Source: Chloroflexota bacterium
GTDB lineage: Bacteria; Chloroflexota; Dehalococcoidia; E44-bin15
Assembly (NCBI GenBank): GCA_030604825.1
Contig: JAUVVB010000003.1
Location: 4,224-68,223 of the forward strand
DNA: 64,000 bases
Reading direction: 5' to 3'
The notes below the pieces were generated by a model, which ran no database searches, was not told the DNA's origin, and worked only from the letters and a program-made list of their open reading frames with translations. Positions 51,661-61,888 of this stretch are shown piece after piece. Position numbers and translations under genes: made by a program. Within the stretch, counting starts at the first letter, position 1, and every line of letters begins with the position of its first letter.

Positions 51661-51886
51661 TGGATTTTTGCCCTCTAGAACAGCGCAGCCGCTCTGCTCA
51701 CCCCAAGGGTAACAGTCATGCCACCTGCCCTTTCACCGTTTCTTCCCTACAGAACTTCAGGCTCGCTGCCTGACGCCCGGCAAGGGTTCTGCCATATGCG
51801 CTCCTCCAGGTTTTCCTTGACAGTGAAAAGGGGCGGTGATATAGTTTATCCCAGGAAAATGACCCTGGTTTCCACATGGAGGGAGG

Positions 51887-53629
51887 ATGTTCGAGAAGGA
51901 AAGGATAGAGGAGATTGAGAGGAGAAGGAAGGAGTGGGAGGAGGGGGTGCTTAAGCGCACCCTGGAGAAGTTTGGGATGAAGGTGAGTCCCAACCGGGTC
52001 TACACCCCCGCCGATGTAAAGGATTTCGATTTCCTGGAGAAGGTGGGATTCCCCGGCGAATACCCCTTCACCACCTCGGAATATCCTTCCAATTTGCCTG
52101 CCCTCAGGATCAGGGGTGGGGTGAGTGCCGTGCTGGTGCGGGCGGCGAGGTATTCCGGCTATGGTGCCCCGGAGGATACCAGGGACTACTATAACCACAT
52201 GCGGGAAGCCCTTGGCCGGCGGGGTGGTCCCAATATCGCCTTCGACCTTCCCACCCAGTGTGGCTACGATTCCGATGACCTGGTGGCCCGGGGCGAGGTG
52301 GGGAAGGTGGGGGTGACGGTGGACACGCTGAGGGATTTTGAGGTGATATATGAGGCCTTCGTCGGGGATAACGACCTGGACAAGATAGCCTCCAACTGGA
52401 CGATAAATGCCCCCTGCAACATCATATTGGCGATGTATCTCGCGCTGGCGGAGAAGAGGGGGATACCGATAGATAGGCTGAGGGGGACGCCTCAGAACGA
52501 CATCCTAAAGGAATTTGTGGCCCGGGGGACATATATCTTTCCTGCCCGGCCATCGATGAGGATGATCAGGGATACCATCACCTACTGCACCGAGCACATG
52601 CCGCTGATGAACAGCATAAGCATCTGTGGCTATCATATGAGGGAGGCAGGGGCTATCCCCATCCAGATGGTGGCCTTCACCCTCTGTAATGCCATGGCCT
52701 ATGTTCAGCTGGGGGTGGATGCTGGGCTTGACGTTGACACCTTCATGCGCCGCTTCACCTTCCTCGTCTGGAGCACGGGCATGGATTTCTTCAAGGAGAT
52801 CGCCCGGGCGCGGGCGGCGAGGAGGATATGGGCCAAGATCATGAGGGAGAGGTTTGGCGCTGAGGATCCCAGGAGCTGGATGCTGCGGGGTGCTGGTGGG
52901 GTGGGTGTTCCCACTCACACCTTAACCCTGCAGCGACCGCTCAATAACGTGACGCGAAATGTCATCATTGGCATCGGCAACGCCCTTTCTGGGGGTGTCC
53001 CCACCGGTGGCGTTCCCTACGATGAGCCCCTGGGGCTGGGGCACAGCCTGGAGGCAGAACAGCTTTCCATCGATGCGGGGAGGATATTGCAGTTTGAGGC
53101 CAAGCTGGGGGATGTAATTGACCCCCTGGCCGGCTCCTACTATGTGGAGCACTTGACCGATCGGGCTGAGGAGGAGATCTGGGACATCATCCAAAGGATC
53201 GATGCCATGGGTGGCGCTGTAGCCGCCATCGAGAGCGGCTACATGCAGCGGGAGATCGCCAGGGGTGCCTACGAATATCAGCGGCAGGTGGAGATGGGGG
53301 AGAGGGTGATCGTTGGCGTAAACCGTTTCACCGGTGAGCAGGAGCTGGAGGTGCTCACCCACCGACTGGTGGAACACCCCTATGATCCCAAGAAGAGGGC
53401 GGAGGCAGAGGAGAGGCAGCTTAAGAATCTGGCCCAGGTGAAGGGGGCGCGGGATAATGGGCAGGTTCAGGCGACCCTGAAGCGGCTAAAGGAAGAGGCC
53501 GGGGACGAAAAGGCAAATCTCATCCCCCCCATTCTAGAGGCGGTGAAGGCCTATGCCTCCGTCGGCGAGATGTGTAATGTGTTGAGGGAGGTCTTTGGGG
53601 AATACCAGGCCTATAACGTGACCGCTTAG
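51887..53629 (+). CDS. AdoB12-dependent acyl-CoA mutase, large (catalytic) subunit, divergent
   Basis: FPGEYPF, AFDLPTQ.GYDSD, QNDILKEF, GYHMREAG, DPLAGSYYVE, VGVNRF. Confidence 0.92.
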   Translation: MFEKERIEEIERRRKEWEEGVLKRTLEKFGMKVSPNRVYTPADVKDFDFLEKVGFPGEYPFTTSEYPSNLPALRIRGGVSAVLVRAARYSGYGAPEDTRDYYNHMREALGRRGGPNIAFDLPTQCGYDSDDLVARGEVGKVGVTVDTLRDFEVIYEAFVGDNDLDKIASNWTINAPCNIILAMYLALAEKRGIPIDRLRGTPQNDILKEFVARGTYIFPARPSMRMIRDTITYCTEHMPLMNSISICGYHMREAGAIPIQMVAFTLCNAMAYVQLGVDAGLDVDTFMRRFTFLVWSTGMDFFKEIARARAARRIWAKIMRERFGAEDPRSWMLRGAGGVGVPTHTLTLQRPLNNVTRNVIIGIGNALSGGVPTGGVPYDEPLGLGHSLEAEQLSIDAGRILQFEAKLGDVIDPLAGSYYVEHLTDRAEEEIWDIIQRIDAMGGAVAAIESGYMQREIARGAYEYQRQVEMGERVIVGVNRFTGEQELEVLTHRLVEHPYDPKKRAEAEERQLKNLAQVKGARDNGQVQATLKRLKEEAGDEKANLIPPILEAVKAYASVGEMCNVLREVFGEYQAYNVTA

Positions 53630-53716: not shown

Positions 53717-54124
53717 ATGACCGAGGAGAAAAGGATCAGGATGTTGATGGCAAAGCCGGGCCTTGATGGCCACGACCGCGGGGCTAGGGTGTTGACCCTG
53801 GGGTTGAGGGATGAGGGGATGGAGGTGATCTACACCGGGCTGAGGCAAAGCCCGGACAAGATAGCCCAGGCGGCGATCCAGGAAGATGTGGATGTGGTGG
53901 GTATGAGCTGCCTTTCTGGGGCCCATAACTACCTCTTCCCCGCGGTGTTGGAGAAGTTGAGGGAATCGGGGGCGGAGGACGTGCTGGTAATTGGCGGAGG
54001 AATTATCCCTAAGGAGGACATCCCCTTCCTCCAGGAGAAGGGGGTCAGCGCCGTCTTCGGCCCGGGGACGCCGATCAAGGAGATCGCGGACTACATTAGG
54101 GAAAACGTGAAGCGGAAGGCGTAG
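53717..54124 (+). CDS. Acyl-CoA mutase cobalamin-binding small subunit
   Basis: [21 protein letters not shown]. Confidence 0.95.
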
Positions 54125-54148
54125 GCGGATTTGGAGGTTTCACCGATA

Positions 54149-55123
54149 ATGGAACTGGTTGAGAAGATGCTTTCCGGCAGCGACCTGTCCCTGGCTCGCC
54201 TGATTACCCTGGTGGAGAGGGAGGCTGCCGAGGTTCCTCGGATAATGAGCCTGATCTATCCTCACCTCGGTAACGCCTATTTGGTGGGCGTTACCGGCCC
54301 CCCCGGAGGGGGAAAGAGCACCCTGGTGGACAGATTGACCGCGGTGATGAGGGCTAAGGGCTTCTCGGTGGGCATCATCGCCGCTGACCCCACCAGTCCC
54401 TTCTCCGGAGGCGCTGTGCTGGGCGACCGGATCAGGATGCAGCAGCACTATCTGGATAAAGGGGTGTTTATCCGCAGCATGGCCACCAGGGGCAGCGCCG
54501 GAGGGCTCCCCCGGGCAGCTAGGGGGGTGATCAAGCTCCTGGACGCTTATGGAAAGGATTTCGTCGTGGTGGAAACGGTGGGCGTGGGGCAGACGGAGCT
54601 GGACATCATGGAGGCTACCGACACCACGGTGGTTGTCCTTGTTCCCGAGGCTGGGGATACCATCCAGACGATGAAGGCGGGGCTGCTGGAGATCGCCGAT
54701 ATATTTGTGGTGAACAAGGCCGACCGGGAGGGGGCGGATTACCTGGCTGTTGAATTGGAGCAGATGTTGCGCATGAGCCCCAAGGACTCGGGATGGCAGC
54801 CCCCCATCCTCACCACCCAGGCAATCCATGACATCGGCATCCAGGAGCTTTATCAGGAGATCGAGAGGCATCGCGACGTGCTTCAGGAAACGGGGCAGCT
54901 CTCCCTCAAGCGACAGGAGCAAAGAAAACGGGAATTCATCCAAAACATCGAACAGGGGATCAGGGCAACCATCCTCAAACTGGCGGAGAAGGATGGCCAG
55001 CTCGTGTCCTTCCTGGAAAGGGTGGAGAAGGGGGAGCTTGACCCCTATTCCGCTTCCATGGAAATCCTCAGCAACAGAACCCTGCTTCAGACCTGGCTTT
55101 CCGAACTGGAGAAGGAAGGCTAG
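54149..55123 (+). CDS. meaB: MeaB-type G-protein metallochaperone
   Basis: GPPGGGKST, GGAVLGDRIRM, ETVGVGQ, NKAD. Confidence 0.93.
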   Translation: MELVEKMLSGSDLSLARLITLVEREAAEVPRIMSLIYPHLGNAYLVGVTGPPGGGKSTLVDRLTAVMRAKGFSVGIIAADPTSPFSGGAVLGDRIRMQQHYLDKGVFIRSMATRGSAGGLPRAARGVIKLLDAYGKDFVVVETVGVGQTELDIMEATDTTVVVLVPEAGDTIQTMKAGLLEIADIFVVNKADREGADYLAVELEQMLRMSPKDSGWQPPILTTQAIHDIGIQELYQEIERHRDVLQETGQLSLKRQEQRKREFIQNIEQGIRATILKLAEKDGQLVSFLERVEKGELDPYSASMEILSNRTLLQTWLSELEKEG

Positions 55124-55147: not shown

Positions 55148-56521
55148 ATGGACACCACCCGGAGAATCGCTGATTTTGTCGTTGGCACCGGCTATGAGGC
55201 AATTCCCCCGGAAGCGCTCAGATTTGCCAAGGGGGCAATCCTGGATTGCTTGGGTGTTGCCCTAGCTGGTTCCCTGGAGCCTTCGGCAAGGATGGTCACC
55301 GAATATGTCGGCGAAATGGGGGGGAGGGCTGAGGCTGGGGTCATCGCCTCGGGGTTCAACACCCCTGCTCCCCAGGCTGCCCTAGCCAATGGCACCATGG
55401 CCCATGCCCTGGACTATGACGATGTTGCCATGAGTTGGATTGGTCACCCCAGCGTGGTGCTCCTGCCCACGGCACTGGCCCTGGCGGAGAGGGGGAGGCT
55501 CTCGGGAAGGGATGTGCTGGAGGGCTATATCTTGGGCTTTGAGGTGGGGGCGAAGCTGGGGGCGGCGGTGGGTTTCCCCCATTATGATTGGGGCTGGCAT
55601 GCCACCGCTACCCTGGGCACCATGGCCGCTGCGGCCACCGCTGCCAAGATGCTGAGGCTCAATTCCCATCAGGCGGCGATGGCATTGGGAATCGCCGCTT
55701 CCCTGGCGGGGGGGACGAGGCAGAACTTTGGCACCATGACCAAGCCCTTTCATGCGGGAAGCGCGGCAAGGAATGGGACGGTGGCCGCCCTCCTGGCGGA
55801 GAAGGGTTTTACCGCCGATGAGGCCATCCTGGAGAGCCCCATGGGCTTCCTAAGGCTGTTCAGCGGCAGTGGCGAGCCGGAGCAAGCCAAGGCCAGCCAA
55901 GACCTGGGCGACCCCTTTGACATCCTCTCTCTGGGGGTAAGCATGAAGCCCTATCCCTGTTGCCGGCTGACCCACCGCTGCATCGACGCCATGCTGCACC
56001 TGATCAGGGAATACCGCCTCACCGCCGATGATGTGGAGGGGGTGAAATGTAGAACCGCCGAGACCGCCCCCCAAGTACTGATCCACCCCCGGCCCAGGAC
56101 GGCCCTGGAGGGGAAGTTCAGCATGCAGTACTGCATGGCCATCGCCCTTCTGGATGGGAAGGTTGGCCTGAGGCAGTTCACCGATGAGAGGGTGCTTGAC
56201 CCCAAAGCCCAAGAGCTGCTGAGGAGGGTGGAGTTTGTCCATCCCCAGGGGGAGAGCGGTGAGGCACTGAGAATTCCCGAGGCCGTCATCGTCAAGCTCA
56301 GGGATGGCAGGGAGCTTTCCCATGAGGTGGCGGTTCCCAAGGGGGACCCCCAGAATCCGATGACCGAGGAGGAGCTGGCGGCCAAATACAGGGACTGCGC
56401 CAGCCTGGTTCTCTCCGCAGAGGATACCGAGAGGTCGCTGGATATGGTGTCCCACCTTGAGGGGCTGGAGGATATCGCCCCGCTGGTGCATCTAGTGTGT
56501 TTGACGGGCAAATCTGCCTAA
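55148..56521 (+). CDS. MmgE/PrpD family protein
   Basis: NGTMAHALDYDD, GHPS, KPFHAG, KPYPCCRLTH, KFSMQY. Confidence 0.92.
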   Translation: MDTTRRIADFVVGTGYEAIPPEALRFAKGAILDCLGVALAGSLEPSARMVTEYVGEMGGRAEAGVIASGFNTPAPQAALANGTMAHALDYDDVAMSWIGHPSVVLLPTALALAERGRLSGRDVLEGYILGFEVGAKLGAAVGFPHYDWGWHATATLGTMAAAATAAKMLRLNSHQAAMALGIAASLAGGTRQNFGTMTKPFHAGSAARNGTVAALLAEKGFTADEAILESPMGFLRLFSGSGEPEQAKASQDLGDPFDILSLGVSMKPYPCCRLTHRCIDAMLHLIREYRLTADDVEGVKCRTAETAPQVLIHPRPRTALEGKFSMQYCMAIALLDGKVGLRQFTDERVLDPKAQELLRRVEFVHPQGESGEALRIPEAVIVKLRDGRELSHEVAVPKGDPQNPMTEEELAAKYRDCASLVLSAEDTERSLDMVSHLEGLEDIAPLVHLVCLTGKSA

Positions 56522-56541
56522 GATACCAACAGGAGGATGAT

Positions 56542-57759
56542 ATGAAGGGGCCACTGTCGGGGATCAGGGTTCTGGATGTGTCACGGGCCATCGCTGGCCC
56601 CTATGGCTCCATGATCCTTGCCGACCTGGGGGCTGAGGTGATCAAGATCGAGCCTCCAAGATGGGGGGAAAGGGCGCGCCATATCCCCGGGCCTAACCAC
56701 AAGGGAGAGAGCTACTACTTCCTTGCCTTCAATCGAAATAAGAAGAGCGTAACCCTCAACCTGGCCACCGAGCTGGGGAGGGAGGCCTTCTATGACCTGG
56801 TGAGGATATCGGACGTGGTGTGGGACAACTTCCGCCCCAGGGTTATGGAGCGATTGGGTGCCGACTACGACACCCTGAAGGAGATCAATCCCGGCATCAT
56901 CTGCTGCTCGGTAACGGGCTTCGGCTCCTCCGGCCCCTATCGGGATCGCCCCTCCTTCGACCTGGTGGCGCAGGCGATAAGTGGGGTGATGAGCATCACC
57001 GGAGAGCCCGGGGGCCCACCCCTTCGCTCCGGCCCCCCCGTCGCTGACCTGGTGGGAGGCATGTTCGGCGTTCATGGCGTCCTCGCCGCCCTCTACCAGC
57101 GAACCTTCACTGGCAAGGGGCAAAGGGTGGAGACATCCCTGCTGGATGGTCAGGTCTCCAACCTCACCTACCAGATGTCCTACTATTTGTGCGGTGGGGA
57201 GGTCCCCGGCCCCATGGGTTCAGGCCATCTTTCCCTGGTCCCCTACGGGGCCTATAAGGCCAAGGAAGGCTATCTGGTTATGGGTGTGGGCTGGCCTCGG
57301 GTGGCCAGGGTGCTGGGCATCGAGGAGATCATCGACGACCACAGGTTCGAGAGCGGCGAGTCCAGGCTGGAACATAAGGAGGAGCTAGATTCCCTCGTTC
57401 AGCAGGCCTTCCTCAAGGAGAAGGCAGAGGATTGGCTCGCCGTGCTGGAGGTGGAGGATATCCCCTGCGGCCCGGTAAACGCCATCGACAAGGCCATTTC
57501 CGATCCCCAGATAATTCACAACAACATGATCGTGAGCGTAAAGCACCCCTTGGGGGGTGAGGTGAGGATGGTGGGAAATCCGATAAAGATGCCCCAGAGC
57601 ATCGAGGAGGAGTTCACCGCCCCGCCCACCCTGGGGCAGCATGACCACGAAATCCTGGTTGAGCTTCTTGGCTACTCCGAGGAGAGGATCGAGAGGTTGA
57701 GGGAGGAGGAGGAGAGGCGTGCCGAGAAACTGCTTGCCAGCCTGCAGAAGCGGGCCTGA
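56542..57759 (+). CDS. Class III CoA-transferase (CaiB/BaiF), paralog 1
   Basis: LSGIRVLD, AGPYG, NRNKKS, DNFRP, catalytic D in PVADLVGG. Confidence 0.93.
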   Translation: MKGPLSGIRVLDVSRAIAGPYGSMILADLGAEVIKIEPPRWGERARHIPGPNHKGESYYFLAFNRNKKSVTLNLATELGREAFYDLVRISDVVWDNFRPRVMERLGADYDTLKEINPGIICCSVTGFGSSGPYRDRPSFDLVAQAISGVMSITGEPGGPPLRSGPPVADLVGGMFGVHGVLAALYQRTFTGKGQRVETSLLDGQVSNLTYQMSYYLCGGEVPGPMGSGHLSLVPYGAYKAKEGYLVMGVGWPRVARVLGIEEIIDDHRFESGESRLEHKEELDSLVQQAFLKEKAEDWLAVLEVEDIPCGPVNAIDKAISDPQIIHNNMIVSVKHPLGGEVRMVGNPIKMPQSIEEEFTAPPTLGQHDHEILVELLGYSEERIERLREEEERRAEKLLASLQKRA

Positions 57760-57774
57760 AAGGAGGATGACATA

Positions 57775-58986
57775 ATGAGGCCACTGGAAGGGGTAAGGGT
57801 TCTGGCTCTGGAGCGGGCCATCGCTGGCCCCTATGGCTCCATGGTGCTTGCCGATCTGGGAGCGGAGGTGATCAAGGTCGAGCCTCCTCAGACCGGCGAC
57901 CTGAGCAGATTATTCGTCGGTCCAAATCATAAGGGGGAGAGCTTTTACTACATGGCATTCAATAGGGGCAAGAAAAGCCTGGCGCTGGACATCAACACAA
58001 AGATGGGCAAGGAACTCTTCTACGACCTGGTAAAGATATCGGATGTGGTCTGGGATAATTTCTCCGCCGGGACCATGGAGAGGATAGGGGCTGATTTCGA
58101 TACCCTGAGCCGGATCAACCTGGGGATCATCTGCTGCTCCATCAGCGGCTACGGGCAGACTGGTCCCTATCGGGATCGAATCTCCTTTGATGTGGTTGCT
58201 GAGGCCATAAGCGGGGCGATGAGCATCACCGGTGAGCCGGGAAGGCCACCGGTTAGGTATGGCGCCCCCATCGCCGATGAGATGGGAGGGCTGTTTGGCG
58301 CCATTGGCGTGCTGGCCGCCTTGGCGCAGCGGGAACGCATCGGGAAGGGAACCAGGATAGACATCTCCCTCCTCGATGGTCAGATATCCTCCCTGGCCTA
58401 TCACCTTTTGTACTATTTCTGCTCCGGGATCGCCTGCGGGCCTCAACGTTCAGGCCATCTCTCCCTCATCCCCTATGGGGCCTATGAGACCAAGAAAGGC
58501 TATCTTGCTATTGGCCCTTGCTGGCCCAGGATATGTCGTGTCTTGGGCGTTGAGGAGATCATCGATGCCCCCCGGTTCGAGAGCGGCGAGTCCAGGATCG
58601 AGCATCGGGAGGAGCTGGATTCCATCCTCCAGCAGGCCTTCATGAAGGAGAAGGCGGAGGACTGGCTTGAGGTCCTCTATGCGGAGCGCATTGGAGCCGG
58701 CCCGGTGAATACCCTGGATAAGGCGGCTGCCGACCCCCAGGTGCTGGCGAGGAACATGGTGGTGGAGATGGAGCATCCCCTGGGGGGGAAGATAAGGCAT
58801 GTGGGAAACCCGGTGAAGATGCCAGAAATCGGGGAGGAATTCTCCCCTCCGCCTACCCTGGGGCAGGACAGCGAGGAGATCCTGGTGGGGCTTATGGGCT
58901 GCTCCGCGGAGAAGATAAAGCAGTTGAGGCAGGAGGAGGAGCAGCGCGCCGAGGAATTGCTTGCCAGCCTGCGCCGGGCGCAGTGA
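57775..58986 (+). CDS. Class III CoA-transferase (CaiB/BaiF), paralog 2
   Basis: LEGVRVL, AGPYG, NRGKKS, catalytic D in PIADEMGG. Confidence 0.93.
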   Translation: MRPLEGVRVLALERAIAGPYGSMVLADLGAEVIKVEPPQTGDLSRLFVGPNHKGESFYYMAFNRGKKSLALDINTKMGKELFYDLVKISDVVWDNFSAGTMERIGADFDTLSRINLGIICCSISGYGQTGPYRDRISFDVVAEAISGAMSITGEPGRPPVRYGAPIADEMGGLFGAIGVLAALAQRERIGKGTRIDISLLDGQISSLAYHLLYYFCSGIACGPQRSGHLSLIPYGAYETKKGYLAIGPCWPRICRVLGVEEIIDAPRFESGESRIEHREELDSILQQAFMKEKAEDWLEVLYAERIGAGPVNTLDKAAADPQVLARNMVVEMEHPLGGKIRHVGNPVKMPEIGEEFSPPPTLGQDSEEILVGLMGCSAEKIKQLRQEEEQRAEELLASLRRAQ

Positions 58987-58995
58987 AGTGGGGGA

Positions 58996-60444
58996 ATGGG
59001 GGTACCGGTGGCACAGAAGGTATTGCTGGTCAATACCAACCAGATAAAGCCCCCAGTGGTGCCGCTGGCCCTGGATTATCTCGCCTCTGCCCTTCGCCAG
59101 AAGGAATTTGAGGTCGACCTTCTCGACCTCTGTTTCTGCCAGGACTTCGCCCCCGAGATCCGTCGCTACTTGGCCCAGAACAGCGTCTCCGCCATCGCCA
59201 TCACCCTGCGAAACACCGACGATACTCACTTTGCCGGCCAGGATTTCTTCATCCCCCAGCTCAAGGAGATAACCGACTGCCTCAGGGCAAACACCTCCGC
59301 CCCCCTCATCCTGGGCGGGGCTGGTTTCTCCATCATGCCCCAGGCCATCTTGGAGTACTGCGGGCTGGGTCTGGGGATCTGGGGGGAGGGGGAAGCCTCG
59401 CTCCCTTTGCTGCTGAGGAAGCTCAATGCCGGTGAGGACTACCGCGATGTCCCCGGACTGGTCTATCGCGGCGAAAAGGGCTTCCATCGAAATCCCCCCG
59501 AGTACCTCAACCTGAAGAATATGCCCGCTCCAGAGCGGGTCACCGTGGACAACCGGCGCTACTTTGGGGAGGGGGGCATGGGCAGCATAGAGACGAAGCG
59601 AGGTTGCTCCAAGGGTTGCATCTACTGTGCCGACCCCCTGGGAAAGGGGAGAAAAGTTCGCTGCCGCTCCCCCGAGAGCGTGGCGGATGAGATAGAGGCC
59701 CTGCTGGGGATGGGGATTGACCATCTCCACTTCGGCGATAGCGAGTTCAACCTTCCCCCAAGCCATGCTGAGCAGGTTTGCCTTGAGCTCATCAAAAGAG
59801 GGCTGGGCTCAAGGCTGAGGTGGTATGCCTACTTAAGCCCGGTTCCCTTCAGCCGGGAGCTTGCCCTTCTATTCCAAAGGGCGGGATGTGCCGGCATAAA
59901 CTTTGGTGCAGATAGCGGCAATGACGTTATGCTGCGCACCCTGGGGCGGGATTTCACCGTAGAGGACCTGGAGCACACTGCTGGCATCTGCCACCGGGAG
60001 GGCATCATCTTTATGTATGACCTCCTTCTGGGAGGGCCGGGTGAAACCAGGGAATCGCTCAAGCAGACCATCGAGACCATGAAAAGGCTCTCCCCATCGC
60101 GGGTAGGGGCTAGCATTGGGGTGAGGGTCTTCCCCGGAACCAAGATGGCGAAGTTGGTGAAGGGGGAAGGCCCCATAGCAGAAAGCCCCAACCTCCACGG
60201 CGTTAGGGACGAAAAATTCTTTGCCCCGGTCTTCTACCTGTCCTCGGCCCTGGGGGAGGATGCCCCGGGGTATCTTGCCAGCCTCATTTCAGGCGATGAG
60301 CGCTTTTTCAGTGCTTTTGCCGATGGCGGGGATCAGAACTACAACTATAACCAAAACCTCATCCTGGTGGAGGCTATCAGGGACGGCTATCGGGGCGCCT
60401 TCTGGGACATCCTGAGAAGGCTATCGGAGTCCAAAGCCCTTTGA
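58996..60444 (+). CDS. B12-binding radical SAM enzyme, TsrM-like methyltransferase clade
   Basis: NQIKPPVVPLALD, RNTD, GGAGFSIMP, TKRGCSKGCIYC, DSEFNL, GYRGAFW. Confidence 0.85.
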   Translation: MGVPVAQKVLLVNTNQIKPPVVPLALDYLASALRQKEFEVDLLDLCFCQDFAPEIRRYLAQNSVSAIAITLRNTDDTHFAGQDFFIPQLKEITDCLRANTSAPLILGGAGFSIMPQAILEYCGLGLGIWGEGEASLPLLLRKLNAGEDYRDVPGLVYRGEKGFHRNPPEYLNLKNMPAPERVTVDNRRYFGEGGMGSIETKRGCSKGCIYCADPLGKGRKVRCRSPESVADEIEALLGMGIDHLHFGDSEFNLPPSHAEQVCLELIKRGLGSRLRWYAYLSPVPFSRELALLFQRAGCAGINFGADSGNDVMLRTLGRDFTVEDLEHTAGICHREGIIFMYDLLLGGPGETRESLKQTIETMKRLSPSRVGASIGVRVFPGTKMAKLVKGEGPIAESPNLHGVRDEKFFAPVFYLSSALGEDAPGYLASLISGDERFFSAFADGGDQNYNYNQNLILVEAIRDGYRGAFWDILRRLSESKAL

Positions 60445-60469
60445 CAAAGCGGGGCACCCGATATAGAAT
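60441..60469 (+). promoter_or_regulatory. sigma70 promoter
   Basis: TTGACA-17 nt-TAGAAT. Confidence 0.7.
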
Positions 60470-60484
60470 TGTGAGGGGGAGAGG

Positions 60485-61888
60485 TTGAAAAGCAAATACG
60501 ACATCATCATCGTGGGCGGCGGACCTGCAGGCATCTTCGCCGCCTTAGAAATGTCTCAGGCCTCGAATTTGAGCATCCTCCTTCTGGAGAAGGGGAAGGA
60601 TATCGATTCCCGAAGCTGTCCCTCCATCGGGCAGGGGATAAGCTGCCCCCCGTGCTCCCCCTGCGACCTGGTGAGCGGGGTTGGCGGCGCTGGCGCCTTC
60701 AGCGATGGCAAGCTCACCCTCTCCAGTGAGGTAGGGGGCAGGCTTAAGGATTACCAGGGGCTGGAGAGGACCGAGGAGCTGATCCGCTATGTCGATAGCG
60801 TCTTCCTCAAGTTTGGGGGGACGGACAGCGTCTATGGCACTGGAGAAAAAGTGGAGGAGTTGGTGCGCAGGGCCACCCTGGCTGATCTGCGCCTCATCCC
60901 CATGGCGATTCGCCATCTGGGAACGGAGCGCTCCCGCCTGGTGTTCAAGGGGATAGGGGACTTCCTCTCAACCAGGGTTGACCTAAAGGTGAGCACTGAA
61001 GCCCGCACCATCCTCGCCGAGAACGGGGTGGCTAAGGGGATTGAGACCACCGATGGGCAAAGGTTTGACTGCCGCTATCTGATCGTCGCCCCGGGAAGGG
61101 ACGGGGTGGACTGGCTCACCCGCGAGGCCCATCGCCTCAAGCTCACCCTTCAGATTAACCCCATCGATGTCGGCGTCAGGGTGGAGGTACCTGAAGCCGT
61201 CCTTGAGGAGTTGACCAGCGCCTTATATGAGTGCAAGCTGGAATATTACTCCAAGGCCTTTGACGACCGGATCAGGACCTTCTGCATGTGCCCCGCGGGG
61301 GAGGTGACCATGGAGTCCACCGGGGGCAGCGACCCGGTGACCACCGTCAATGGCCAGAGCTATGCCGAGCGCAAGACCGGCAACACGAATTTTGCCCTGC
61401 TGGTGAGCACCATCTTCACCGAGCCCTTCCGCGACCCCCTGGCCTACGGGCGATACCTCGCTCGCCTGGCCAACATCCTCAGCGGTGGGGTCATCATACA
61501 GCGCCTCGGCGACCTATTGGAGGGCAGGCGCTCCACCGAGGAGCGCATCCGGAGGGGGATTGTCCAGCCCACCCTCAAGAGCGCCACCCCGGGCGATCTC
61601 AGCTTCGTGCTCCCCTATCGCTACCTGGTGGGCATCATCGAGATGCTTGAAGCCATGGACAAGCTTGCCCCCGGCGTTGCCTCCCGCCATAGCCTGCTCT
61701 ATGGTGTGGAGGTCAAGTTCTATTCCTCGCGCCTCGCCCTCAGCCAAAACCTGGAGAGCGAGATAGAGAACATGTTTGCCGTTGGTGACGGCGCCGGGGT
61801 TACTCGGGGACTCATCCAGGCATCGGCCTCGGGCGTGGTGGCAGCCGGGGAAATCCTGAGGAGAGCGGGGGTATCCGCTGCTGGGTGA
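60485..61888 (+). CDS. NAD(P)/FAD-dependent oxidoreductase (COG2509-like)
   Basis: VGGGPAG, GGAGAFSDGKL, RTFCMCP, YGVEVKFYS, GDGAGVTRG. Confidence 0.88.
   Translation: MKSKYDIIIVGGGPAGIFAALEMSQASNLSILLLEKGKDIDSRSCPSIGQGISCPPCSPCDLVSGVGGAGAFSDGKLTLSSEVGGRLKDYQGLERTEELIRYVDSVFLKFGGTDSVYGTGEKVEELVRRATLADLRLIPMAIRHLGTERSRLVFKGIGDFLSTRVDLKVSTEARTILAENGVAKGIETTDGQRFDCRYLIVAPGRDGVDWLTREAHRLKLTLQINPIDVGVRVEVPEAVLEELTSALYECKLEYYSKAFDDRIRTFCMCPAGEVTMESTGGSDPVTTVNGQSYAERKTGNTNFALLVSTIFTEPFRDPLAYGRYLARLANILSGGVIIQRLGDLLEGRRSTEERIRRGIVQPTLKSATPGDLSFVLPYRYLVGIIEMLEAMDKLAPGVASRHSLLYGVEVKFYSSRLALSQNLESEIENMFAVGDGAGVTRGLIQASASGVVAAGEILRRAGVSAAG

Follow-up and report, generated by a model that had tools for sequence, protein, structure and literature searches.

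The closest described relatives of the mutase considered here are encoded in the alkylsuccinate synthase (ass) islands of Desulfatibacillum alkenivorans AK-01, Desulfoglaeba alkanexedens, and Smithella, where genes for a mutase, for MeaB, and for an MmgE/PrpD-family protein accompany those of a glycyl-radical enzyme and its activase. The ass-island mutase has been named as a candidate for the carbon-skeleton rearrangement of alkylsuccinyl-CoA after fumarate addition, in a literature that calls the genes for the steps after activation unclear (PMC13685792, PMC7180275, PMC8163825). Studies of alkane degradation further postulate an epimerase after the methylalkylsuccinate synthase step, without identifying it (PMC4561516, PMC13450708). 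Elsewhere, the ethylmalonyl-CoA mutase (ECM) pathway includes an enzyme working on a pair of a 2-substituted succinyl-CoA and a substituted malonyl-CoA (PMC5719088), and two further mutases of this kind have been proposed: ActD/MatB, a split enzyme of the "2-hydroxyisobutyryl-CoA mutase (HCM) subclass" converting hexylmalonyl-CoA to 2-pentylsuccinyl-CoA, and IaaGH, a phenylsuccinyl-/benzylmalonyl-CoA mutase (PMC5719088, PMC8360864). Here, we examine a mutase gene in a 64,000-nucleotide stretch of DNA (the window; contig JAUVVB010000003.1, positions 4,224 to 68,223) from a Chloroflexota bacterium of the class Dehalococcoidia. The original prediction, made from the sequence of this window, had described the gene product, which we call P0001, as a B12 mutase with intact radical machinery, a rebuilt barrel, and a likely new specificity.

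Our comparisons place P0001 in a clade that accompanies alkylsuccinate synthase genes, and the two residues with which methylmalonyl-CoA mutase (MCM) holds a free carboxylate, Tyr89 and Arg207, have their equivalents in P0001. Given both observations, we infer that P0001 probably interconverts a 2-substituted succinyl-CoA and the matching substituted malonyl-CoA, the substituent being left unassigned, within an operon that looks suited to the breakdown of free substituted succinates.

An intact mutase subunit with retained radical machinery and altered segments

The open reading frame is that of an intact acyl-CoA mutase large subunit (Table 1). P0001 scored 470 bits against PF01642 (cut-off 22) and 499 bits against TIGR00641, the acyl-CoA mutase N-terminal domain (cut-off 304). 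In its AlphaFold2 model (pLDDT 84, pTM 0.88), the fold was that expected of the family, and the top Foldseek matches were HcmA and MCM. From these data and the adjoining genes, P0001 is predicted to be the catalytic subunit of a split adenosylcobalamin-dependent acyl-CoA mutase. DNA nearly identical to this locus is present in marine-sediment metagenomes of several independent studies, and therefore the gene is not an assembly artefact; the sequencing runs listed for this near-identical DNA were DNA runs only, no RNA-only query having been made.

To read residue equivalences, we aligned P0001 by HMMER with the structures of HcmA (4r3u), human MUT (2xij), and P. shermanii MutB (1req and 5req), and a MAFFT alignment that included an ECM reference agreed with the resulting picture of kept and changed motifs. 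All four solved structures bear out the claim that the radical machinery is retained, with equivalents of MCM Tyr89, Gln197/Arg207, and Tyr243/His244 in P0001. Its Y89 aligns to MCM Tyr89, at which the 5req entry (Y89F) shows F, and the Arg207 equivalent is nearly invariant across the clade described below, being His in the paralog m6. The counterpart of the DEA motif, Y378-D379-E380 (nucleotides 53018-53026), is invariant in that clade.

The predicted changes in the barrel segments also proved real. Compared with MCM and HcmA, P0001 has an insertion of 9 residues before Tyr89, close to the length first estimated, and GGPNIAFD where the others have GLSVAFD. Farther along, RGAGGVGVPTHTLT stands in place of R-x-H-x-Q-T-S-G-W-S-L-T, with a net gain of 2 residues and with R334 at nucleotide 52886 as claimed, and GVPTGGVPYDEP stands in place of TQSLHTNSxDEA. 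Three residues that we take to line the pocket of MCM, and for which a text search of the literature gave nothing useful, are thereby replaced: His328 by Ala and Gln330 by Gly within RGAGGVGVPTHTLT, and Asn366 by Val. In a joint alignment, the R.H..QT and SLHTN motifs are kept by MCM (human, P. shermanii, and m1 of the window's own genome), by the isobutyryl-CoA mutase (ICM)-like paralog m3, and by HcmA.

To our knowledge, ECM is the only characterized mutase for a 2-substituted succinyl-CoA. As its reference we used a fused 672-aa mutase of Methylobacterium aquaticum, called ECM by its position and not by assay, whose gene is divergent beside a ccr gene (TIGR01751, 619 bits against a cut-off of 379). 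This protein retains Tyr89, Arg207, and Tyr-His, keeps GLSVAFD, and has no insertion before Tyr89; it alters the same two motifs as P0001 but in a different manner (RYG..VQV and AVQLPAWNEA). That ECM is altered at these same two motifs is the best support we have, an indirect one, that the motifs may shape a substituent pocket. The claim that the P0001 pattern is unlike any of MCM, ICM, HCM, ECM, and pivalyl-CoA mutase (PCM) therefore stood for MCM, for the ICM-like paralog and IcmF (NF045497, 193 against a cut-off of 1500), for HCM, and for the ccr-linked ECM, PCM not being part of the comparison.

Four variable segments, two of which coincide with the motifs altered in ECM, are predicted to form the pocket for the substituent (Table 1). 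Between P0001 and its five closest orthologs, the segments were 71-76% identical and the rest of the protein 78-85%, and within four other orthogroups the values were 69-86% and 77-84%. Between representatives of different orthogroups, identity fell to 29% in the segments against 68% in the rest of the protein, and the best 120 homologs displayed at least 10 segment signatures. Segments that determine specificity and are held by purifying selection inside each orthogroup would be expected to show such a pattern, which also argues against decay.

We weighed these results against the alternative that P0001 acts on a carboxylate-free substrate, as HCM does, or is an inactive, decaying paralog. 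HcmA is the best solved match of P0001 by sequence and by fold, and a premature TAG in the paralog m5 could hint at decay. However, at the HCM test positions (MCM Tyr89, the Ala of GLSVAFD, and Arg207), P0001 does not carry the HCM signature: HcmA has Ile, Asp, and Gln where P0001 has the MCM-like Y89, A118, and R213. The signature that we take to mark ICM, Phe and Gln for Tyr89 and Arg207, is seen in m3, whereas P0001 has Tyr and Arg, and the retained pair would argue against a carboxylate-free substrate such as that of PCM. As for decay, the P0001 frame is intact, its orthologs (77-85% identical) retain the altered segments almost unchanged along with the operon, and the metagenomes of several independent studies hold near-identical DNA. 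A split PrpD gene at one orthologous locus (L013) is a 100-N gap in the assembly and not the decay in homologs that the original prediction had named as evidence against itself. We therefore consider this alternative highly improbable.

A clade shared with the mutases of alkylsuccinate synthase islands

A word-indexed homolog search returned at least 8000 mutase-family candidates, the best 120 of which were 62-85% identical to P0001. Where these 120 carry names, the source is Chloroflexota/Dehalococcoidia and the annotation is methylmalonyl-CoA mutase, and cluster-name look-ups for the relatives gave only "methylmalonyl-CoA mutase" or "Sbm." In a library of 50%-identity representatives, three full-length sequences scored 580-680 bits and the next 442. 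One of these three (P0130, 52% identical) is WP_249010648.1 of Conexibacter sp. DBS9H8, a possible experimental handle on the family. A plasmid collection contained no clade member, its best match being 43% identical, but it was the source of the ECM reference.

We scanned species-representative genomes, found 79 loci with mutase relatives, and built two maximum-likelihood trees. In both, 69 sequences, including P0001 and three paralogs from its own genome, formed one clade with SH-aLRT support of 100 on a stem of 0.54-0.57. MCM, m1 and m2, the ICM-like m3, HcmA, and the ccr-linked ECM all fell outside. All members of the clade carry GGPN and xPYDEPLGL, are lengthened by the insertion before Tyr89, and have additional residues in both the RxH and the FLxxG segment. 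A small sister group (L086 and L089 from Methylomirabilota metagenome-assembled genomes, L087 from an unclassified bacterium) lacks the insertion and has RSG..AGSGAS for RxHxQT and SLHTAAYDEA for part of SLHTN; it may represent an intermediate form or another specificity.

When genes within 8 kb of the mutase were clustered over the 79 loci, the commonest neighbor encoded an MmgE/PrpD protein (35 loci), followed by the small B12 subunit, mutS (34), MeaB (24), a crotonase-family protein (18), a family III CoA-transferase (16), a glycyl-radical activase (12), a glycyl-radical enzyme of about 836 aa (11), a MoxR-type ATPase (10), and an AMP-forming ligase (9). At 10 loci, mostly from Thermodesulfobacteriota (Smithella, Desulfococcaceae, Desulfobacteraceae, and others), a mutS-mutL-MeaB-PrpD module lies directly 5' of the gene for a glycyl-radical activase, a glycyl-radical enzyme, or both. 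In several cases, genes for a small Cys-rich subunit and a MoxR-type ATPase come next, and a sigma-54 activator gene opens some of the loci; this is the gene set of the published ass islands.

With these data in hand, we could ask whether P0001 is simply an ordinary methylmalonyl-CoA mutase with a divergent sequence. The kept Tyr89, Arg207, and His244, the adjoining MeaB and B12 subunit genes, and the public annotation of all relatives would fit such an enzyme. Set against this, the genome already has a canonical MCM-like gene in m1, and P0001 scored 419 bits against the MCM equivalog NF006944, below its cut-off of 876, although that model is based on the fused form, which depresses the score. 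In addition, the motifs common to MCM, the ICM-like paralog, and HCM are replaced, the clade is separate, its pocket segments diversify between orthogroups, and its genes are tied to PrpD and alkylsuccinate synthase genes and not to propionate genes. An ordinary MCM thus appears quite unlikely.

These same observations bear on the new specificity that had been claimed. A specificity other than that of MCM is likely, supported by the separate clade, by segments conserved within and divergent between orthogroups, and by the canonical MCM-like m1 elsewhere in the genome. The claim of novelty fared less well, since P0001 is one member of a subfamily carried by dozens of genomes, whose ass-island members have already been proposed as mutases; the subfamily is known and is not a new kind of mutase. 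The glycine-opened barrel and the larger substrate that went with the claim are conjectural, and the AlphaFold2 model has its lowest confidence in just these segments.

A further alternative would place P0001 in the alkane pathway itself as its (1-methylalkyl)succinyl-CoA mutase, with synthase genes in the unassembled 9% of the genome. The ass islands share with P0001 both the clade and the mutase-MeaB-PrpD module, and in one genome of the same family as the window genome (G128) a glycyl-radical match lies about 5 kb from a clade mutase. Yet neither the genome that holds the window (91% complete) nor that of the closest homolog sampled (G194) gave any glycyl-radical enzyme in a PF02901 search, so fumarate addition is probably not the source of the substrate. 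The position of P0001 in the tree also differs: its branch, along with those of L015 and the paralogs m5-m7, arises close to the clade's base, while most ass-linked mutases occupy a derived subclade whose near-uniform loops (NPFDFWRAYA..., ITAHIGCSSTT, GAFPPFDEP) P0001 does not have. On the sequence evidence, P0001 is in the clade of the ass-island mutases but outside the ass-linked orthogroup, and its own orthogroup probably handles a substituent other than the 1-methylalkyl group that the ass-linked enzymes take. We regard the alkane-pathway assignment as very unlikely.

The clade is carried by about 18 of 201 genomes of the class, in 1-6 copies, and glycyl-radical enzymes were found in 9 of 16 tested clade-carrying genomes. 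In three clade-carrying genomes of the class (G033, G128, and G051), the PFL-like glycyl-radical family had 13-24 matches, fragments at contig ends among them.

An operon with a predicted epimerase and two CoA-transferases

The mutase gene (mutL) is followed by mutS and by genes for MeaB, an MmgE/PrpD protein, two CoA-transferases, and a protein with B12-binding and radical-SAM domains, in an order shared with orthologous loci (L009/L010 and L013) that are 77-80% identical. A promoter-like site precedes mutL, and the next equally good one lies only at 60441-60469, ahead of a gene for a FAD-dependent protein; transcription from the first site therefore probably covers everything from mutL through the B12/radical-SAM gene. 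An Rfam scan near the operon found no riboswitch or other family. The small subunit has the DxHxxG motif as D17-G-H19-D-R-G22 (nucleotides 53765-53782), and comparison with the paralog on contig C21 makes an ATG at 56542 the likelier start of CoA-transferase A. The B12-binding radical-SAM gene and the FAD-dependent protein gene (58996-61888 of the window), 3' of the CoA-transferases, are also present at L009 and L013.

Table 1. Features of the mutase gene and its operon, with positions in the window
Feature	Position	Strand	Basis and remarks
Promoter-like site (TTGACA, 17-nt spacer, TATAGT, TG before -10)	51817..51845	+	Consensus match only, 11/12 matches; about 42 nt 5' of the mutase start
Mutase large (substrate-binding) subunit, P0001, 580 aa	51887..53629	+	Open reading frame, profile matches, alignments, tree
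Variable segment 1, residues 63-88 (insertion before Tyr89)	52073..52150	+	Alignments; orthogroup-specific LRIRGGVS
Tyr89 equivalent, Y89 in ARYSGYG	52151..52153	+	HMMER alignment; invariant in clade
QNDILKEFVAR, with Q203 and R213 as Gln197 and Arg207 equivalents	52493..52525	+	HMMER alignment
Y249-H250 (in G248-Y249-H250), Tyr243/His244 equivalents	52631..52636	+	Alignments
Variable segment 2, residues 293-297, LVWST	52763..52777	+	Alignments; one-residue insertion typical of clade
Variable segment 3, residues 334-346, RGAGGVGVPTHTL	52886..52924	+	Alignments; in place of RxHxQTSGWSL
Variable segment 4, residues 370-377, GVPTGGVP	52994..53017	+	Alignments; in place of TQSLHTNS, then Y378-D379-E380
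Small cobalamin-binding subunit, P0002, 135 aa	53717..54124	+	TIGR00640, 174 bits against 57
MeaB G-protein chaperone, P0003, P-loop GPPGGGKST	54131..55123	+	TIGR00750, 345 bits against 241
MmgE/PrpD-family protein, iminodisuccinate-epimerase type; predicted epimerase of 2-substituted succinates	55148..56521	+	Solved relatives, catalytic residues
Family III CoA-transferase A	56497..57759	+	Profile matches; best solved relative SUGCT 9br7, 1e-86
Family III CoA-transferase B	57775..58986	+	65% identical to transferase A

The genes beyond MeaB suggest what kind of substrate reaches the mutase. The closest solved relative of the window's PrpD protein is iminodisuccinate (IDS) epimerase (2hp3, 1e-70), followed by cis-aconitate decarboxylases, with 2-methylcitrate dehydratase far behind. 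The protein keeps H86, D89, H100, Y146, H151, K199, and K267, the catalytic set of IDS epimerase with its second-base Tyr (residues as listed in PMC12290011), and of the 38 PrpD proteins linked to mutases, the ass-linked ones included, 36 retain all seven. We rejected a role as cis-aconitate decarboxylase, in which the position of the second-base Tyr is held by Ile. The closest solved relative of the CoA-transferases is SUGCT, the human dicarboxylate enzyme, and a benzylsuccinate CoA-transferase subunit (9fn0_B) was a weaker match. These proteins may serve in the epimerization of free dicarboxylates and in their loading onto CoA.

Precedent for such a pair exists, since an MmgE/PrpD protein has been demonstrated experimentally to isomerize free (S)- and (R)-methylsuccinate, with a stereoselective CoA-transferase as its partner, and methylsuccinate has been argued to form in anoxic habitats (PMC12290011). 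This raises the possibility, a special case of the interconversion we favor, that P0001 does the job of ECM as a methylsuccinyl-CoA/ethylmalonyl-CoA mutase in an anaerobic methylsuccinate pathway, with PrpD as methylsuccinate isomerase and the transferases as methylsuccinate CoA-transferases. The epimerase residues kept in PrpD, and Tyr89 and Arg207, kept as in ECM, agree with this assignment. Weighing on the other side, the pocket motifs of P0001 are unlike those of ECM, which also lies outside the clade; the top solved match of PrpD is IDS epimerase, in a comparison that did not include the methylsuccinate isomerase sequence; and four paralogs with four pockets in one genome argue for several substrates. 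We consider methylsuccinate an unlikely assignment.

Paralogous mutases in the same genome

The window's own assembly (1.37 Mb, 91% complete) contains eight PF01642 genes, m1-m8. The contig of the canonical MCM-like m1 also carries a B12 subunit gene, about 3.5 kb 3' of m1, and m2 (C5:15417-17069) is a tandem copy of m1 with SLATCS for SLHTNS. A further gene, m4 (C27:13386-14984), is aberrant, having TSYNDVMGVGGYLWRPD instead of the QNDILKE...R motif and DSYNYR instead of GYH; m2 and m4 may be non-catalytic partners or have further specificities. Besides the ICM-like m3, the remaining four, m5-m8, are members of the clade, 69-71% identical to one another and each with different pocket segments.

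Among the clade paralogs, the m5 gene sits in a second cluster of mutS, crotonase, mutL, PrpD, and CoA-transferase genes. It (C21:3148-4878, minus strand, locus L095) carries its TAG at codon 525 of 579, where a 98%-identical public protein (P0027) has Gln; the rest of the frame is conserved, and the TAG reflects either a variant introduced by sequencing or a nonsense mutation of recent origin. Genes 3' of m6 encode an MmdA-like carboxyltransferase, a biotin carrier, the beta subunit of a Na+-translocating decarboxylase (TIGR01109, 487 bits against 191), and a crotonase, and 3' of m7 are the genes for electron transfer flavoprotein beta and alpha. The neighboring crotonases scored 190-196 against PRK11423, the YgfG-type decarboxylase, which has a cut-off of 257. 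The genome also encodes about 30 family III CoA-transferases, many in adjacent pairs, so that eight mutase large-subunit genes and about 30 transferases in 1.37 Mb amount to a striking investment in the rearrangement and transfer of CoA esters.

At locus L011/L012 (P0041), the mutase has pocket segments like those of P0001, and its gene directly follows those for a DctP/DctM TRAP transporter, with two acyl-CoA dehydrogenase genes nearby, a context that fits the uptake of a free dicarboxylate.

A proposed route for free substituted succinates

If P0001 is a mutase for 2-substituted succinyl-CoA, as we favor, its operon could work as follows. The PrpD-type enzyme would interconvert the C2 epimers of a free 2-substituted succinate, so that both become usable, and the family III CoA-transferases would load the acid onto CoA, probably from succinyl-CoA. 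The mutase, with its small B12 subunit and MeaB, would then convert the substituted succinyl-CoA to the substituted malonyl-CoA by a 1,2-migration of the thioester group. Decarboxylation might fall to enzymes encoded beside the paralogs, namely, the MmdA-like Na+-pumping decarboxylase near m6 and the crotonase-family proteins, and the resulting acyl-CoA would enter beta-oxidation. Family membership, kept residues, the clade, the gene neighborhoods, and the conservation pattern are what the data show, and from these we infer the substrate class, the direction of the reaction, and the roles of PrpD and the transferases.

Several points weigh against this proposal. The kept Tyr89 and Arg207 would suit a plain MCM equally well, and the placement of the variable segments around the pocket is suggested by sequence patterns and by the structures of MCM, in regions where the pLDDT of the AlphaFold2 model drops to 50-76, its least confident parts. 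The informative relatives ActD/MatB and IaaGH, like PCM, are not among the sequences of the tree, and the ass-island papers cited here report no assay of any clade member (PMC13685792, PMC7180275, PMC8163825). At the level of the pathway, the P0001 operon has no decarboxylase gene, the orthologous locus L013 has a single CoA-transferase, and, given the outcome of the PF02901 search, the source of a substituted succinate is not apparent in the window's genome.

A broader scenario can be put forward tentatively, and we hold it to be possible more than probable. The clade might have radiated into at least 10 mutases, each specific to its alkyl- or aryl-succinyl-CoA substrate and equipped with pocket loops of its own, and its constant companion, the MmgE/PrpD protein, might be the postulated alkylsuccinate epimerase. 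Sediment Dehalococcoidia with small genomes and without fumarate-adding enzymes would then use several mutases on substituted succinates that come from primary hydrocarbon degraders or by other routes, gaining energy through a Na+-pumping decarboxylase acting on substituted malonyl-CoA.

Our results extend the candidate mutase clade beyond alkane degraders, with pockets that diversify by orthogroup and an epimerase-type MmgE/PrpD protein that travels along. They thereby offer testable hypotheses for both missing enzymes of the alkane pathway, the rearranging mutase and the epimerase, as well as a panel of natural pocket variants for the B12-dependent rearrangement of bulky dicarboxylic thioesters. 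They also hint that the abundant Dehalococcoidia of marine sediments feed on substituted succinates.

Comparison with known systems

Among the solved mutases, HcmAB (4r3u) shares with P0001 the division into large and small subunits and is its top match (1e-112 by sequence); apart from the three test positions discussed above, HcmA differs in retaining RFHCQT and SLHTN. MCM (1req and 2xij) has the same radical machinery, carboxylate-binding residues, and MeaB partner, but it is only 32-33% identical to P0001 in structural alignment, has the motifs that P0001 replaces, and belongs to a separate clade. ECM resembles P0001 in keeping Tyr89, Arg207, and Tyr-His while altering the His328 and SLHTN motifs; unlike P0001, it is a fused protein of about 670 aa, has other replacements, and lies outside the clade. 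For ActD/MatB and IaaGH, the likeness is by description only, as mutases for a succinyl-CoA with a bulky 2-substituent, and there are differences of context: ActD/MatB is biosynthetic, and the iaa cluster has a single CoA-transferase (IaaL) where the P0001 locus has two.

The nearest system is the "MCM/HcmAB-like" mutase of the ass/mas islands (AK-01, Desulfoglaeba alkanexedens ALDC, and Smithella), a candidate (1-methylalkyl)succinyl-CoA mutase. It has the clade, the indels, and the split architecture in common with P0001, and its module likewise combines mutase subunits, MeaB, and MmgE/PrpD. The two are 50-53% identical, however, with four different pocket segments and with most of the ass-linked enzymes in the derived subclade, and the P0001 operon has CoA-transferases where the ass islands have a glycyl-radical enzyme or an AMP-forming ligase. 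The window's PrpD protein, for its part, matches methylsuccinate isomerase and IDS epimerase in its catalytic residues, in its His/Tyr base pair, and in being paired with a dicarboxylate CoA-transferase, although it is linked to a B12 mutase and methylsuccinate isomerase to an itaconate-degradation cluster. In its overall logic of transferase, mutase, and decarboxylase, the proposed pathway parallels the sbm-argK-ygfG-ygfH operon of E. coli, which converts succinate to propionate, and the fermentation of succinate by Propionigenium.

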